Shown here in pieces: positions 6,213 to 50,455 of a stretch of 64,000 bases of DNA. The number at the start of each line of letters is the position of its first letter. The stretch's first letter is position 1. Source of the stretch: a phage. The position numbers and the translations under genes were made by a program. The notes beneath the pieces were generated by a model. It saw only the letters and a list, made by a program, of their open reading frames with translations, had not been told where the DNA came from and made no database searches. The DNA is taken from the sequence record PZ166176.1; one strand, given 5' to 3'.

Positions 6213-8288
6213 GTGGCAAAGAAAAAGGCAGCAGGTAGTTTAGCTGGAGTAGATATTGAAGTAAAGGCTCAACCAGGTAAACAGACTCTTGCAATGGATT
6301 TAATGCCAGAAGTTATGATTTATGGTGGTGCCGCTGGATGTGTTTCTGCTGAAACAGAATATCTTACAAAAGATGGTTGGAGACAGATTAGTGAATATTC
6401 TGGAGAGGATATTTACCAATACAATCCTAAGAATAAGCGTTTAGAATTGGTAACACCTTATTTTGTAGAATACGATTTAAATGGAGATAACCTATACAGA
6501 ATAACAAATGGTGTAGGATTGTTCCAAGAACTTAGTATGGAACACCGTTTTGTATTCTATAAGAAAAAGAAATCAAAGAAACATTTCGAGATTCTTGTAG
6601 GAGATCTTATTGCATTACAGCAAATAGGAAAACCCCTGCAAGGTTATGTAGAAAATCCATTCGGTAAACGTGTTCCTTTTAACATACCTGGTAAAAAGAG
6701 CACTTACTTAAAAATACACGAGGTTATTTCAACAGATGATAAGAAATATTGTTTTGAGACTCCAAGCAGCTATATTGTCTTTAGACGTGGCGATCACTGC
6801 TTCGTTACTGGGAATAGCGGCAAGTCTCGTCTGCTATTGCTGAAAGCTTTAAAATACGCCTACAAAGACCCTTTGTTTGGTGGAATACTTTTCCGTAAGA
6901 ACACCACTGCTCACCGTAAACCAGGTGGTCTGTTTACAGAAGCAAAACGTTTGTATCTTCCTTTACAACCGCACGTAAAAGAAAGTACAATGGATATCAT
7001 TTTTGAAGCCACTGGTGGTGGAACCCTCAAATTTGACCATTTGGAAAATGATAACGTAACAGCAGAAACAAACCATCAGGGTACACAGTATTCAATGGTA
7101 GGTTTTGACGAGTTAACCCACTTCACACAATATGAAATGCTCTATCTTCTGGGACGTATGCGTTCAGAGTCAGAAACAAGTTTCATGTTGTGCACATGTA
7201 ACCCTGACGCAGATAGTTGGGTTTTGAATTGGGTGTTACCTTATCTTGATGAGGGTGGTTATCCTAGAGAAGATATGTGTGGTAAACAAAAATATTTCAT
7301 CATTGTTAACGATGAACCTGTTTTTGCTGACACACCTGAAGAACTGAAAGAAAAATATCCAGAAAACTGTTTCATGGAAAACCCTAATACAGGGGAGACA
7401 GTTGTTATTGAACCACAAACTTTCGTATTTATTGGTGGGACAATATTTGATAACCCAGAACTCATTAGGCTTAACCCTAATTACTTAGCACAGCTTAAAT
7501 CACAAACAGCGATTAAAAGAGCACAGCTTCTGGACGGTTGTTGGTTTGCACGTATTCAGAAAGAATCTTTCTTTCAACGTGAATGGTTACATAAAATATC
7601 TTATAAAGATGTTCCTAACAATCTTAAACTAATGCGAGCATGGGATAAAGCTGTTTCAGTTCCTACAGAAACTTACCGTTATCCAGACTATACAACATCT
7701 GTCAAAATGGGTAAAGACCAAGATGGTAATATCTACATCTTTGGCGACTATGATTATGATGCTGTGGATGAGAAAAGTAAAATTTTCGGAAGGTTTCGAA
7801 GACTACCTGGGGAAAGGGATAACCTGATTCTAAATCAATGTAAGATTGATGGACCAGAAGTTACAGTAGTGCTTCCTAAAGACCCATCTGGTGCTGGGAC
7901 AATAGAATACACAGAGTCTGCAAAGAAACTTATTCTAGAAGGTTTTGTTGTTAAACCAGATGCTATGCCAGGTAACAAGAAAAAGCTTCAGCGTTTTATG
8001 CCTTTTAGTAGTGCGTGTCAAAACGGTTTTGTTTATATTGTTGAAGATTCTTTCCCTAATGTGGAAACTTTAACCCACTTTTATAAAGAATTGGAATCTT
8101 TCAATGGTGAAAGATCTACAGCCACTATTAAAGATGACATTCCCGATGCTGCTGCCTCTTGTTTTAATACTCTGTCAAAAGAGAATACTTTCAAAGCAGT
8201 AGCTATCCCTACAACAACAAATGCTCCTACAGGATACAGTAGAATGAACAGCGGATTTCACCAACCGTATAGTGTCCGTAAAAGATAA
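6213..8288 (+). CDS. terL: terminase large subunit, interrupted by an intein in the Walker A P-loop
   Basis: Walker A (GGAAG...SGKS) is split by an inserted segment; Walker B-like MVGFDELTHF; size and position upstream of the portal gene. Confidence 0.85.
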   Translation: MAKKKAAGSLAGVDIEVKAQPGKQTLAMDLMPEVMIYGGAAGCVSAETEYLTKDGWRQISEYSGEDIYQYNPKNKRLELVTPYFVEYDLNGDNLYRITNGVGLFQELSMEHRFVFYKKKKSKKHFEILVGDLIALQQIGKPLQGYVENPFGKRVPFNIPGKKSTYLKIHEVISTDDKKYCFETPSSYIVFRRGDHCFVTGNSGKSRLLLLKALKYAYKDPLFGGILFRKNTTAHRKPGGLFTEAKRLYLPLQPHVKESTMDIIFEATGGGTLKFDHLENDNVTAETNHQGTQYSMVGFDELTHFTQYEMLYLLGRMRSESETSFMLCTCNPDADSWVLNWVLPYLDEGGYPREDMCGKQKYFIIVNDEPVFADTPEELKEKYPENCFMENPNTGETVVIEPQTFVFIGGTIFDNPELIRLNPNYLAQLKSQTAIKRAQLLDGCWFARIQKESFFQREWLHKISYKDVPNNLKLMRAWDKAVSVPTETYRYPDYTTSVKMGKDQDGNIYIFGDYDYDAVDEKSKIFGRFRRLPGERDNLILNQCKIDGPEVTVVLPKDPSGAGTIEYTESAKKLILEGFVVKPDAMPGNKKKLQRFMPFSSACQNGFVYIVEDSFPNVETLTHFYKELESFNGERSTATIKDDIPDAAASCFNTLSKENTFKAVAIPTTTNAPTGYSRMNSGFHQPYSVRKR
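6339..6815 (+). mobile_element. mini-intein (about 159 aa) in the terminase P-loop
   Basis: Begins CVSAETEYLTKDGW directly after GGAAG and ends ...DHCFVTGN before SGKS; excision would restore the P-loop GGAAGSGKS. Confidence 0.6.
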
Positions 8289-47122: not shown

Positions 47123-50100
47123 CTAGTGACAGGACGCCCAGGAATTACCCACATCATACCCAGCAGTAAGCTGAACATTAAGATTGTAAAATTCTCCAGC
47201 CTTAGTAACAGCTAAAGCAGCAAGTTCACCTGCCCGACTATAAGCTGTAAACCATCCACCTTTGGGAGATTCATGAATGTTAGCCCAAATTTGCCCTGTC
47301 TCTTTTTCCTTATTATGCTTCCATTCTTCGACTTTAGCAAGGCATTCTTTATCAATTTTCTTTTGTTCTTCAGGATCGTCTACTTTCTTCCAACCTAATG
47401 ATTCAGGTGAAAACCATTTAAATTCTACAAGGTTACGAGAAACTTCAAGCTGGGCTTCATCGTGATATGCAATCATTTGTTGCACGAAATCTTTATTCTT
47501 CCAGTCATCTTTAAAGAAGTCAACACTTAGCCCTTCTTCTTCGATCATGTCATCATAAATAACCATTGCACGTTTAGCACAGATAACCCCACCGCTTTGG
47601 AACAGAGAGTTAAGAATCGCGTGAGCAGAACGAGTAGGAACCTTACGACCGTCAATACCCAAAACATATTGTTTACCAGTCTTAACCCAGAAATCGTTTA
47701 AACGTTCTTTAAGACGCGCCAATGGGAATGCAGCTTCCCAGAAAGCATCGAACACCAATTGCCCTGTAAACTTGTCGCTACCAATTGTTTTAGCAACCTT
47801 GTCGGCTTGTGCACCATAGGTAATACCATACTTAACAGATTTAGCAGGACTACGTTCAAATTTACGTCCAATAGTTTCAGTGATACGTTTTGCCATCATT
47901 GTGTGAACATCATTAGGTTTCTCTAACAACAGAGCGTTACAATATTCGTGTGGCTCCGGCTCGTACCGCCAACAGTTTCCTGTGATGGTAATGCAGTCTT
48001 TCTGACGCATGACCCACGTACCAAGTTCTGTTTGTGGACACCAAACATCCTCTACACCCCACTCTTCAATAGTCAAACTTTGAACAGGAATGTGAGAGCG
48101 GTTAGTCAATGTTGCCACTTTTACTTTCTGCTCTTTTGTATTGAAAGCTACAGAGATATTGCCTCCATGCACCAGGTACGAGGCAGTTAAAGCTGCTTCA
48201 AAAAGTTCACCTGGGTTCTGCGCCCAACGCCAAACAGGTTTTTGTTTATGTTCGTGCCAGTAACCATCTGCAATCAAGAAACCTTCCAAGAAAGCTACAC
48301 GCTCGGCATGAGACATATTAACTACACGTTCTACCCACGGAACATCCCATTTACCTTGTTGAACAGAAGTTAAACTATTTACCTGATCTTGTTCCATGTT
48401 AAATGGAGCATTACAAATAATGTTATCTCCTGTGCAAAGCTCGGCAGTTGTTCTGACTTTAGGCACATAAGTATTCCCTTTACTACGGGTATTAACATAC
48501 CAACGGTGATCTGCTGTTGCACGGTAAGTGTGTGATTTCCCTTTAATCTCAAACGTCTTACTATTTTTATAGAAGACCTTACCTTTTACTTTAGTCCATT
48601 CTTTCAGACCTGTTTCAGCATTGTACCCTAAAATCTCATCCCCTTCCTTCAGGTCGTGATATCCTACCCAACCTTTACGAGTCAAAGCTTGAGCATCCAT
48701 CGGCACACAGTAATGCGATTCAATTTTTGCTTCCAAAGAGTCGAAGTCGTAGCCAATCTGGAAGTATTTAGGAACTTCTACACCAAACAAGTTACGCATC
48801 TCCCATCCAAACAAAGATGTGACACGAGGAATATTAGCTACAGATCTATGCTTCATACGAGAGGTTGCAGCATCACATGTAGCGGCTGGGGTAGGAATAC
48901 GCCCATCCGCCCTTACTGCGGCTAAGAAACCTTTATCGTATTCTTGATCTTCTTCATCTTCTTCCCAATCGGCACCGCCACCTAAAATAGAGTTCCTACG
49001 ATGCTTATACGTTAAGTATTCTACAATCTGTGTAGCATAAGGAAACTTCTCACCCAAAGCTTGCAGGTTAGGACAAATTTCTTTTTCCTGACCTTTGGTA
49101 AAACACGGGTTAGTCAATACTTTAAGACCGCGACCTTTACCTTTTGCTATACGCTCTTGAATCTTCCTTTCCAGGGTTTCCGGTGTGCACTCCAGATGAT
49201 CACAACGATCCTGACAAAAATTAGAAGATAGGGTTTGCTCAACGTAAGCTCGAATACCTTTCTGAAGTTCTTCCTCGCTCTTTTTAATTTTGGTGCCAGA
49301 TTTAAGCGTCAAGTCTTTATCTTTATATTCAGACGGTACCCAACCTAATCCTACGAGCCAGTTTTTAATATGGGTTGTATCGTTCAATGTTGCAGGGATG
49401 TTAGGATCACATAGAGGCTCATCTGCTGCAACTGGTAGTTTCCACTCTTTCCCCAACATAACTAACCACCAATCGCCATCCCTCTCTTCCAAATGACCAT
49501 CATGTTTCTTAGCAAAATTGATCATATGGTTAGTTGGCTCTAAGTTCTTTTTAATTTGCAACTTAGGTGGAATAAAAGCCTTAAGATAACCTTTTGTTGC
49601 TGGTTTAGGTGGCAAAATAGGCTCAACGAGTAAACGAAGACGCTCCATTTCTGCATCCAAAAAAGCAAGGTTCTCTTCTGCTTGCTTCATGTTAAAAGCA
49701 AACCCACGGTGTTCCTGGCGTGTAATAATGTCTGCTACACGTTGTTCAAGTTCAAACGGACCTTCCCATTTATCATAATCACCCCATTCTTCCATAAGGT
49801 AATTATATACGCTCGTATTGGCTTTGTTGTCATAGATACAGTAATAAAGCATGTCCGCAGCAAAAGTCTTAAATCGATCCTCTTCTGGAATCTCTTTACG
49901 GAAATCTATTTTTACATCACCACCTGCCTTTCGAGAAAGTGCTGCCAAACTATGTCCTGATTTGCCCTCAATCTTTCGATCTGGGTTTAACACTTTACTC
50001 AAAATCAAGGAGTCAATAAGTTTTACCTTATTTTTGCCCCACGTGTTATATTTAACACTGTAATCTAAGCCATAAAACAGTTTTGTAGCCAACCAGTCGT

Positions 50101-50455
50101 AGTTGATACCGTTGTGAGCCACAGCCATTTCAACCAGATATTCAGGCTTATCTTTAAAATAACCTTCATGATTAATAAAGTCTGGGAAATCTTTTAGTTG
50201 AAAATGTGTGTAATCTTGCGCCACATACTCTTTAAGAACATATGTGTATTTGCCATCTGACTCTTCATAAGGACGCCCATCAAAGATGTATTTAGGACCA
50301 TCGTGGAAAGCTACTATTTCTCCTGTTTCATGGTTCTCTAAGACAATACAGTGCATTTGAAATGTGTCTTTGAGACGATAAGGACTAGCTAAATAATCAA
50401 TAGTGTCATTATTCAACAATCCGTTTGCTTCAATATCCCATGTAAACTTACTCAC
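47123..50455 (-). CDS. family A DNA polymerase with 3'-5' exonuclease domain, interrupted by an intein
   Basis: Exo motif DIEANGL; motif A region GYDFDSLEAKIESHY; motif B ERSPAKSVKYGITYG; motif C HDEAQLEV; a 245-aa insertion separates motifs A and B. Confidence 0.85.
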   Translation of the reverse strand: MSKFTWDIEANGLLNNDTIDYLASPYRLKDTFQMHCIVLENHETGEIVAFHDGPKYIFDGRPYEESDGKYTYVLKEYVAQDYTHFQLKDFPDFINHEGYFKDKPEYLVEMAVAHNGINYDWLATKLFYGLDYSVKYNTWGKNKVKLIDSLILSKVLNPDRKIEGKSGHSLAALSRKAGGDVKIDFRKEIPEEDRFKTFAADMLYYCIYDNKANTSVYNYLMEEWGDYDKWEGPFELEQRVADIITRQEHRGFAFNMKQAEENLAFLDAEMERLRLLVEPILPPKPATKGYLKAFIPPKLQIKKNLEPTNHMINFAKKHDGHLEERDGDWWLVMLGKEWKLPVAADEPLCDPNIPATLNDTTHIKNWLVGLGWVPSEYKDKDLTLKSGTKIKKSEEELQKGIRAYVEQTLSSNFCQDRCDHLECTPETLERKIQERIAKGKGRGLKVLTNPCFTKGQEKEICPNLQALGEKFPYATQIVEYLTYKHRRNSILGGGADWEEDEEDQEYDKGFLAAVRADGRIPTPAATCDAATSRMKHRSVANIPRVTSLFGWEMRNLFGVEVPKYFQIGYDFDSLEAKIESHYCVPMDAQALTRKGWVGYHDLKEGDEILGYNAETGLKEWTKVKGKVFYKNSKTFEIKGKSHTYRATADHRWYVNTRSKGNTYVPKVRTTAELCTGDNIICNAPFNMEQDQVNSLTSVQQGKWDVPWVERVVNMSHAERVAFLEGFLIADGYWHEHKQKPVWRWAQNPGELFEAALTASYLVHGGNISVAFNTKEQKVKVATLTNRSHIPVQSLTIEEWGVEDVWCPQTELGTWVMRQKDCITITGNCWRYEPEPHEYCNALLLEKPNDVHTMMAKRITETIGRKFERSPAKSVKYGITYGAQADKVAKTIGSDKFTGQLVFDAFWEAAFPLARLKERLNDFWVKTGKQYVLGIDGRKVPTRSAHAILNSLFQSGGVICAKRAMVIYDDMIEEEGLSVDFFKDDWKNKDFVQQMIAYHDEAQLEVSRNLVEFKWFSPESLGWKKVDDPEEQKKIDKECLAKVEEWKHNKEKETGQIWANIHESPKGGWFTAYSRAGELAALAVTKAGEFYNLNVQLTAGYDVGNSWASCH
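47975..48709 (-). mobile_element. intein (about 245 aa) with LAGLIDADG-like motif, inserted after polymerase motif A
   Basis: Starts CVPMDAQALTRKGW, contains ERVAFLEGFLIADGYW, ends ...DCITITGN followed by Cys; the termini resemble those of the terminase intein. Confidence 0.6.

Follow-up and report, generated by a model that had tools for sequence, protein, structure and literature searches.

A Phapecoctavirus-like coliphage with a probable mobile intein, bearing a single LAGLIDADG half-domain, in its family A DNA polymerase

Introduction

The inteins of mycobacteriophages cluster in active-site motifs of enzymes that handle DNA, among them the P-loop of the terminase; Gly, Lys, or Ser often takes the place of their penultimate His, and their LAGLIDADG domains show homing activity (Kelley et al. 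2016, PMC5050341). For coliphages, a 2024 paper stated that there were no reports of inteins (PMC11162368). Class 3 inteins are defined by Trp at B:12, Cys at F:4, and Thr at G:5, the Trp being located two residues after the His of block B, and 3 of 37 inteins with this Trp-Cys-Thr triplet start with Ser or Cys (PMC2807308).

I-CreI, I-MsoI, and I-CeuI are homodimeric LAGLIDADG endonucleases with a single motif, which are free-standing, intron-encoded, and directed to pseudo-palindromic targets. The LAGLIDADG endonucleases borne by inteins, such as PI-SceI, PI-PfuI, PI-PkoII, and the TliVMA intein, contain two motifs and act as monomers. One LAGLIDADG half-domain alone cannot form an active site.

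Here, we analyzed an insertion in the family A DNA polymerase gene of a phage genome sequence (record PZ166176.1; the whole stretch of 64,000 nucleotides is referred to as the window). It had been predicted from the sequence to be an intein related to one in the terminase of the same phage. The inteins of this phage resemble those of mycobacteriophages in their active-site placement, the replacement of the penultimate residue, and, for the polymerase intein, the LAGLIDADG domain, but they reside in a Gram-negative coliphage and at other insertion sites, namely polymerase motif A and, in the terminase, GAAG/SGKS (a slash marks a junction throughout) rather than the position after the P-loop Lys (PMC5050341).

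Results

The gene for the family A DNA polymerase precursor was located on the minus strand at 47123..50455 in the list of open reading frames. It has a GTG start, encodes 1110 aa including the intein, and ends with a stop codon at 47123..47125. Pfam DNA_pol_A matched the product with 43.8 bits, above the cut-off, and the gene was 98% identical to Phapecoctavirus genes labelled 'DNA polymerase I'; the source phage is a Phapecoctavirus-like coliphage. The 245-aa insert predicted after motif A, ending with DCITITGN and followed by Cys, was mapped exactly and in frame to residues 583-827 (nt 48709..47975, minus strand). Its first residues are CVPMDAQALTRKGW (CVPMD…), and it is preceded by DFDSLEAKIESHY and followed by CWRYEP. 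The insert begins 12 residues past the motif A aspartate and divides the palm region, separating motif A from motif B: the N-extein (aa 1-582; 48710..50455, minus strand) carries motif A, GYDFDSLEAKIESHY, at its end, and the C-extein (aa 828-1110; 47126..47974, minus strand) carries motif B, PAKSVKYGITYGA. The strand (minus) had been left unstated in the original prediction; the plus-strand translation of 47975..48709 is full of stops. A group I intron and a free-standing homing endonuclease gene were ruled out, as the ORF is continuous and in frame.

We compared the gene with the alleles of related phages, as had been proposed, and found precise in-frame presence or absence of the insert among near-identical phages. 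The allele of phage tuntematon lacks exactly 735 bp in frame, its flanks are 98.3% identical, and its protein junction reads …ESHY/CWRYEP…. The empty target site is …AATCACACTAC/TGTTGGCGGTACGAG…, and the tuntematon allele across the insertion point is …GAATCACACTAC/TGTTGGCGGTACGAG…. [quoted passage not shown] Because the polymorphism is so precise and the family to which the insert belongs comprises 9656 representative proteins (E≤1e-3), the insert is far beyond chance. Phages phi92, ESCO5, EF1-1, and ZCKP1, which carry the intein, have been isolated in culture and are viable, and their 1110-codon ORF is intact.

The Hint fold, for which a structure prediction had been suggested, was present with high confidence in an AlphaFold model built from a 38-sequence alignment; the single-sequence model was unusable (pLDDT 34). 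Profile searches gave a divided answer. Curated intein and LAGLIDADG profiles stayed below threshold (Pfam Intein_splicing, 16.6 bits against a cut-off of 35.8; Pfam LAGLIDADG_3, a weak match at E=0.15), and scans of the insert with NCBIfam and PHROGs yielded no match. In contrast, a profile built from the family matched solved inteins by sequence: NrdJ-1 (1.7e-4), Spl DnaX (1.9e-4), and AceL NrdHF (7.8e-4). Because of these matches at approximately 2e-4, we read the miss of the curated profiles as a gap in library sensitivity. A phmmer search of PDB sequences with an artificial mini-version of the intein reached only E ~0.1, with the Mtu RecA intein and out of register, and gave no guide for placing Cys224 on class 3 structures.

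Taken at face value, the failure of the curated profiles, together with the label of DNA polymerase I given to the whole ORF in most public records, would suit a lineage-specific, non-splicing subdomain that is kept in the mature polymerase. This explanation is effectively refuted by the exact absence of the insert from 98%-identical alleles, the 188 uninterrupted sites, the Hint fold of the model, and the interruption of the palm region. Moreover, the same domain was found in unrelated proteins, always delimited as Cys…Thr-Gly-Asn with Ser, Thr, or Cys as the next residue. We are highly confident that the insert is a functional, mobile intein, which would splice to leave an 865-aa polymerase and home into empty alleles. 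Splicing itself is suggested by the viability of the intein-carrying phages and by the intact catalytic residues.

Relatives of the intein were abundant. Thousands of metagenomic members sit in other host proteins and have invariant Cys1, TxxH, block F Cys, and Thr-Gly-Asn. Their sites lie in unrelated host proteins or at other polymerase sites (FDVYP/SAYANGW, AKTFIYA/TLYGAG, and AKAH/TFAPLYG), and the same polymerase site is occupied in distant polymerases (QGHY/TWRYDN). The median length in the family is 245 aa, and mini-version relatives without the middle domain also exist. Among 253 relatives, Cys1 and the terminal Asn were conserved in 100%, the Cys at F:4 in 99% (251/253), the Thr at G:5 in 99%, and the Gly at G:6 in 99.6%; the +1 residue was always Ser, Thr, or Cys. 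In 88 non-redundant relatives, the conservation of Thr65, His68, and Trp70 was 100%, 100%, and 98%, respectively.

The intein of the window possesses the N-terminal nucleophile Cys1, Thr65-x-x-His68, Asn245, and Cys+1. Block B (TADHRW; 48500..48517, minus strand) contains Thr65 (B:7), His68 (B:10), and Trp70 (B:12); block F (VWC; 48038..48046, minus strand) contains Cys224 at F:4, 21 residues before Asn245; and block G ends with Thr243-Gly244-Asn245 (G:5-G:7; 47975..47983, minus strand). The +1 nucleophile and the terminal Asn ruled out a bacterial intein-like domain. The penultimate residue is Gly instead of His, which is a known variant in phage inteins (PMC5050341).

Trp70, Cys224, and Thr243 are in register with the triplet of published class 3 inteins (PMC2807308, PMC5222942, PMC7664689), and their conservation in the family is 98%, 99-100%, and 99-100%, respectively. 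The same triplet occurs in the class 3 inteins of mycobacteriophage Bethlehem DnaB, Mycobacterium DnaB-1, and AceL NrdHF, and in mycobacteriophage Catera gp206, an example of Trp-Cys-Thr inteins beginning with Ser or Cys. However, class 3 was originally characterized by the absence of an N-terminal nucleophile, whereas Cys1 (253/253 relatives) and a class 1-type TxxH in block B are invariant here. Further differences from class 3 inteins are the penultimate Gly in place of His, Cys at +1 where Ser or Thr is usual, and a polymerase rather than a helicase as the host protein. As judged from its residues, the intein combines the class 3 triplet with Cys1, an unusual catalytic signature. Tori and Perler (2011) reportedly found that the class 3 route is also followed by Trp-Cys-Thr inteins with Ser1 or Cys1, which relaxed the requirement for a missing nucleophile. 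The first attack may be made by Cys1 (class 1 route) or by Cys224 (class 3 route, with a branched thioester at block F). We lean slightly toward a Cys224-dependent route; a purely class 3 route is uncertain, because the 100% conservation of Cys1 and the class 1-type TxxH argue for the use of Cys1.

The terminase ORF (6213..8288, plus strand) contains CVSAETEYLTKDGW…CFVTGN/SGKS. It carries a mini-intein of 159 aa (6339..6815, plus strand) in the Walker A motif of the terminase large subunit (GAAG/C…TGN/SGKS), and excision restores Walker A as GAAG/SGKS. Of 73 related terminase genes, 71 contain this intein, which is fixed throughout the genus and also in relatives with only 77-81% identity. The original prediction held that the polymerase intein closely resembles the terminase intein and that inteins had spread within the genome. 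The pairwise alignment it proposed gave 18% identity (BLASTP E=0.06), and the family HMM matched the terminase intein in block A only, with 13.7 bits. The likeness is confined to short terminal motifs, and what the two have in common is only the broad-clade signature of Cys1, a Cys 21 residues before the terminal Asn, and Thr-Gly-Asn. The polymerase intein is nearer to inteins in unrelated metagenomic proteins, with 28-51% identity. The terminase intein is only a distant relative, and for this reason spread within the genome is unsupported. It is very improbable that the two are recent copies, from terminase to polymerase or the reverse, despite the shared CV…LT(K/R).GW start, the equally spaced Cys, and the common Thr-Gly-Asn end, and despite phmmer matches of the terminase intein to members of the polymerase-intein family at E 1e-5 to 1e-11 (256-protein set). 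Besides the low identity and the match restricted to block A, the polymerase intein lies much nearer to inteins of other phages and metagenomes, and it is patchy in the genus where the terminase intein is fixed.

We then examined the divergence of the intein and its flanks. Between genera (window and phi92), the dS of the intein was 0.44 as compared with 1.36 for the C-extein, and that of the N-extein was saturated; within the genus (window and ESCO5), it was 0.02 as compared with 0.16-0.18 for the flanks. The nucleotide identity of the intein was 92%, against 72% and 80% in the flanks. Each of the two genera has alleles with and without the intein whose exteins are 98-99% identical. Because the synonymous divergence of the intein is far below that of its flanks, these sequences indicate that it has moved horizontally in recent times. 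In 34 phage records, among them those of phi92, ESCO5, and ZCKP1, the intein protein was 97.6-100% identical; Klebsiella phage KP13-16 carries it at 90.6% identity.

The middle of the intein consists of an inserted endonuclease-type domain (~aa 100-205; 48095..48412, minus strand), which is one LAGLIDADG half-domain with the order alpha-beta-beta-alpha-beta-beta and the LAGLIDADG alpha/beta core fold. The LAGLIDADG-type motif anticipated from the sequence is present in ERVAFLEGFLIADGYW (intein residues 136-151) as FLEGFLIADG (aa 140-149; 48263..48292, minus strand), and is the single such motif in the intein chain. The conserved acidic residue that ends the LAGLIDADG helix is Asp148, which is presumed to bind metal. 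Gln164 (48218..48220, minus strand), at the end of beta-strand 2, is by its position in the fold probably the counterpart of the active-site Gln47 of I-CreI. Asp148, Gly149, and Gln164 were conserved in 90%, 98%, and 99% of the 88 non-redundant relatives, respectively. The dN/dS of the domain was 0.046, indicating purifying selection, which could reflect the needs of precursor folding and splicing in an essential enzyme instead of nuclease activity.

PI-SceI, PI-PfuI, PI-PkoII, and the TliVMA intein are likewise LAGLIDADG endonucleases borne by inteins, but their solved chains have 366-537 residues as compared with one ~100-residue half-domain and 245 aa in total here. The homologous intein in nepoznato contains two LAGLIDADG motifs. 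I-CreI, I-MsoI, and I-CeuI share the single motif, whereas the present domain forms part of an intein and has a target without symmetry: in a palindrome scan of the empty target site, no more than 5 of 11 positions were mirrored, where the background was 2.8 ± 1.4. This asymmetry does not favour a simple homodimer, and a dimeric nuclease is neither supported nor excluded by it.

The short insert had been suspected of carrying a degenerate endonuclease. We consider this doubtful, as one half-domain is the standard of the family, the three residues above are 90-99% conserved, the dN/dS is 0.046, and the intein has moved recently. On these sequences, the domain does not look obviously degenerate, and we infer that it probably has endonuclease activity. 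We tentatively raise the possibility that the large, profile-poor phage and metagenome clade with invariant Cys1, Trp-Cys-Thr, and a Gly-Asn end uses its half-domain as an active dimeric homing endonuclease, in which the dimer would be formed by inteins or by precursors. If true, this would be the first single-motif endonuclease borne by an intein, and a natural system in which coexisting class 1 and class 3 nucleophiles can be dissected. No report of a single-motif intein endonuclease was found in the literature searched.

The intein might instead splice truly and retain an inactive endonuclease remnant, which we regard as conceivable but doubtful. Such an element would persist, as an essential gene tolerates only its exact removal, and would move between phages only by ordinary homologous recombination or with the aid of another nuclease, such as a free-standing HNH endonuclease. 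Recombination is frequent in phage co-infection, and HNH endonuclease genes adjoin polA in EF1-1, SD2, and alia. The single half-domain as compared with the two motifs in nepoznato, the target site without palindromic symmetry, and the LAGLIDADG_3 match at E=0.15 are also consistent with a remnant. On the other hand, dS is lower in the intein than in its flanks by a factor of at least 3 between genera and of 8 within the genus, as active invasion predicts. The single-domain layout is the norm in relatives that are at most 60% identical, with Asp148, Gly149, and Gln164 conserved as described above, and the low dN/dS also speaks against inactivity. The mini-intein relatives, moreover, show that an unneeded domain can be lost by deletion.

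Discussion

Here, we propose a model for the polymerase intein by summarizing the above results. The gene would be translated as a single 1110-aa precursor, in which the Hint domain (residues 1-99 and 206-245) would fold, cut both junctions, and join …ESHY to CWRYEP…. The catalytic set would consist of Cys1, Thr65-x-x-His68, Trp70, Cys224 (F:4), Thr243, Gly244, Asn245, and Cys+1. Whether Cys1 or Cys224 made the first attack, the end product would be the same, namely an 865-aa polymerase identical to that of the intein-less alleles. At the DNA level, the intein would home into empty polymerase alleles during co-infection, most likely driven by a dimer of the single LAGLIDADG domain that it carries.

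The element is of an ordinary kind and comes from a large, poorly catalogued family of phage inteins, which the curated profile libraries miss as a whole despite its thousands of members. The '1110-aa DNA polymerase I' listed in approximately 35 public genomes of coliphages, among which are the model phage phi92 and candidates for therapy, would be an 865-aa polymerase plus an intein. Being culturable in E. coli, these phages are a convenient system in which to determine the nucleophile that initiates splicing, given the invariant Cys1, the block F Cys, and the rest of the triplet, and to test whether a one-motif LAGLIDADG domain can drive homing. The natural intein-plus and intein-minus pairs of the two genera, with 98-99% identical exteins, are ready material for co-infection homing experiments. 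With its small size of 245 aa, the element might also serve as a splicing or endonuclease scaffold.

Literature searches found no published description of an intein in Phapecoctavirus or phi92. Nearly all public records other than that of phage SD2 label the whole ORF as 'DNA polymerase I' or 'hypothetical protein'; the SD2 record (GenBank PQ821640) already bears the label 'intein-containing DNA polymerase precursor'.

Identification of an intein in polymerase motif A

The window comes from a Phapecoctavirus-like Escherichia myophage, and its polymerase gene (47123..50455, minus strand; 1110 aa encoded) showed 97–99% identity to those of EF1-1, anhysbys, ESCO5, and ZCKP1. ORF translation confirmed the coordinates and peptides originally predicted for the insert and added the strand, previously unstated: nt 48709..47975 on the minus strand, exactly polymerase residues 583–827. 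The insert begins with CVPMDAQALTRKGW, ends with DCITITGN, and lies between GYDFDSLEAKIESHY and CWRYEP. DFDSLEAKIESHY is polymerase motif A, which reads DYSQIELRIMAH in the E. coli Pol I enzyme and DASGLELRCLAHF in that of T7; PAKSVKYGITYGA, downstream of the insert, is motif B. In a metagenomic relative with a same-site intein, the polymerase reads WDASGLESRIEAHY/C (slashes mark intein junctions).

The tuntematon polymerase gene was 98.3% identical to that of the window, yet 735 bp shorter; the missing segment matched the proposed intein to within 5 nt of ambiguous sequence (ACTGT), and the encoded protein runs …ESHYCWRYEP…. Searching with a 400-nt probe that spans the junction of the intein-less allele showed the site to be uninterrupted in 188 records of phages (Phapecoctavirus, Justusliebigvirus, many Pseudomonas phages, and others), and the insert was found at ≥90% protein identity in 35 records. 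The near-identical tuntematon gene and these 188 records ruled out the reading of the insert as a conserved polymerase subdomain. Two mechanical ORFs of 80 and 89 aa overlap the intein on the opposite strand (47948..48190 and 48656..48925, plus strand); their surroundings are low-complexity and stop-rich, and nothing suggests that they are genes.

Scans of the insert with curated profiles gave 16.6 bits for Pfam Intein_splicing (cut-off 35.8) and E=0.15 for LAGLIDADG_3, and no match in NCBIfam or PHROGs. A family profile built from homologues matched 9656 representative proteins at E≤1e-3 (675 at E≤1e-30), and the size of this family missed by curated profiles is of specialist interest. The profile also matched three solved inteins, NrdJ-1, Spl DnaX, and AceL NrdHF, with E-values of about 2e-4 to 8e-4. 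Among 253 retrieved relatives, the median element length was 245 aa, the first residue was always Cys, the Thr-Gly-Asn end occurred in 99–100%, and the following residue was always Ser (72%), Thr (17%), or Cys (11%). An AlphaFold model based on a 38-sequence alignment (pLDDT 91.2, pTM 0.87) showed the Hint fold. The intein-less alleles, the splice-site residues of the family, and this model bear out the original prediction of an intein with a LAGLIDADG-type domain; as an intein, the element is very probably functional.

Homologues also interrupt other hosts, namely a small protein at FDVYP/SAYANGW and, in motif B, other family A polymerases; some are short versions without the middle domain. 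The small protein, the commonest host, is lysine-rich, with the motif PTNP.LW..AK..A..KFDVYP/SAYANGWA.K.YK..GG.W (metagenomic P0002–P0006, P0157–P0255). Roughly 150 of the 253 relatives reside in it (the site tally gives about 140); it weakly resembles DUF5872 (E=0.0015) and often lies within larger multidomain proteins. The site occupied in the window also holds one-motif inteins of this family in three distant metagenomic family A polymerases (P0050, P0055, and P0064; motif A GDASALEGRVQGHY or WDASGLESRIEAHY), there with Thr at +1; inteins thus recur at this position in diverse phages.

Phage inteins are well known from the active-site motifs of polymerases, terminases, and helicases (PMC5050341), and LAGLIDADG-carrying inteins are likewise well known. 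A literature search found no paper describing this polymerase intein, and according to a 2024 paper there had been no report of an intein in any coliphage (PMC11162368). GenBank PQ821640 already labels it 'intein-containing DNA polymerase precursor'; the ORF is called DNA polymerase I in almost all other records.

Catalytic residues

Block B of the intein is T65-A-D-H68-R-W70, Cys224 within V-W-C occupies position 4 of block F (F:4), exactly 21 residues before Asn245, and T243-G244-N245 is followed by Cys+1. The penultimate Gly is a known variant among phage inteins (PMC5050341). Its Trp at B:12, together with Cys at F:4 and Thr at G:5, makes up the triplet by which class 3 inteins are defined; there the block F Cys, rather than residue 1, attacks the N-terminal junction (PMC2807308, PMC4031507). 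The class 3 inteins Msm DnaB-1 and Mle DnaB have the same Cys-to-Asn spacing of 21 (PMC5222942). Among 88 non-redundant relatives (no pair >60% identical), Cys1, Thr65, His68, Cys224, Thr243, and Asn245 were 100% conserved and Trp70 98%. Mixed inteins combining the triplet with Ser1 or Cys1 reportedly use the class 3 route, according to Tori and Perler in 2011; three are listed in PMC2807308. Since Cys1 is invariant, the family probably cannot dispense with it, and either Cys1 or Cys224 may act first. This invariable pairing of Cys1 with the triplet is of interest to specialists.

A one-motif LAGLIDADG domain

The modelled middle domain (AlphaFold) comprised three short helices, helix 134–148 (ERVAFLEGFLIADGY), strands 149–154 and 157–164, helix 168–180, and strands 185–189 and 197–201; as modelled, it is one LAGLIDADG alpha-beta-beta-alpha-beta-beta unit. 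In the homologous 324-aa nepoznato intein there are two motifs, GRFLGWLLSDGYY followed by LEAFLEAFWMADGH; the intein of the window aligned to the second, without the ~79 residues holding the first. Since 214 of 253 relatives were 230–300 aa long, the one-motif form is the family norm, not a local decay product. Together with the 90–99% conservation of Asp148 (90%), Gly149 (98%), Gln164 (99%), and Lys120 (90%) in the 88-relative set, this speaks against the suggested degenerate endonuclease. Gln164, at the end of strand 2, would presumably correspond by position to the I-CreI active-site Gln47. An active site cannot be built from one half-domain, and the endonuclease would have to dimerise to be active; no palindromic symmetry was found in the empty target site, and this asymmetry counts weakly against a simple homodimer. 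On balance, we lean slightly towards an active endonuclease domain. A literature search found no precedent for a one-motif LAGLIDADG domain in an intein; such a domain under selection would interest specialists.

The nepoznato element (MN850571; L003:3001-3972 in its polymerase locus) is a second, different allele in the same gene, 32% identical to that of the window, and also occurs in ukendt, nieznany, AV126, phiWec187, and the 'Campylobacter' phages A150, A145, C3, and A110a. It is inserted in motif B (KSVKYG/C…TLTGN/C-TYGAQ), with Cys replacing Ile at +1; in these genomes the unoccupied motif A site has Thr, not Cys (HY-T-WRYDN).

Mobility of the polymerase intein

Between the window and phi92 or SD2 (Justusliebigvirus), nucleotide identity was 92% for the intein, 72% for the N-extein, and 80% for the C-extein. 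The dS values against phi92 were 0.44, saturated, and 1.36, respectively, and against ESCO5, of the same genus, 0.02, 0.16, and 0.18. Intein-plus and intein-minus alleles coexisted in both genera with exteins 98–99% identical (window or EF1-1 versus tuntematon; phi92 or SD2 versus alia). The lower dS and the coexisting alleles indicate that the common ancestor of the intein is much younger than that of the host genes, as expected of an element still invading empty sites. Its dN/dS was 0.024 overall and 0.046 in the middle domain. Alternatively, the intein may have spread by recombination without its own nuclease, or helped by neighbouring HNH endonucleases. A free-standing HNH endonuclease gene lies directly downstream of polA in EF1-1 (L002:3860-4331), SD2 (L004:4115-4711), and alia (L006:3678-4274), and is absent there in the window, tuntematon, and ESCO5; this further mobile element near the polymerase could aid marker exchange.

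Relationship to the terminase intein

A 159-aa mini-intein (6339..6815, plus strand) splits the Walker A motif, GAAG/SGKS, of the large terminase subunit (gene 6213..8288, plus strand). It has Cys1, Cys at F:4 (21 residues before the terminal Asn), and Thr-Gly-Asn, then Ser. Cys1, the spacing of 21, and Thr-Gly-Asn are common to both inteins, whereas B:12 is Phe in the terminase intein and Trp in the polymerase intein. The close kinship originally proposed did not hold: identity was 18%, BLASTP gave E=0.06, and the family HMM matched the terminase intein in block A only (13.7 bits). The terminase intein matched some wider-family members at E of 1e-5 to 1e-11 (256-protein set), placing both inteins in one broad clade. 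Of 73 related terminase genes, 71 contained it, among them relatives just 77–81% identical, whereas the polymerase intein was patchy. Independent acquisition from a common phage-intein pool fits better than the predicted spread within the genome. Within Phapecoctavirus the mini-intein is essentially fixed in the terminase genes, and the PHROG 979 profile includes it. In nepoznato (MN850571), an HNH homing endonuclease gene additionally splits the terminase gene into two annotated parts, and the terminase match consists of two pieces spanning 3045 nt.
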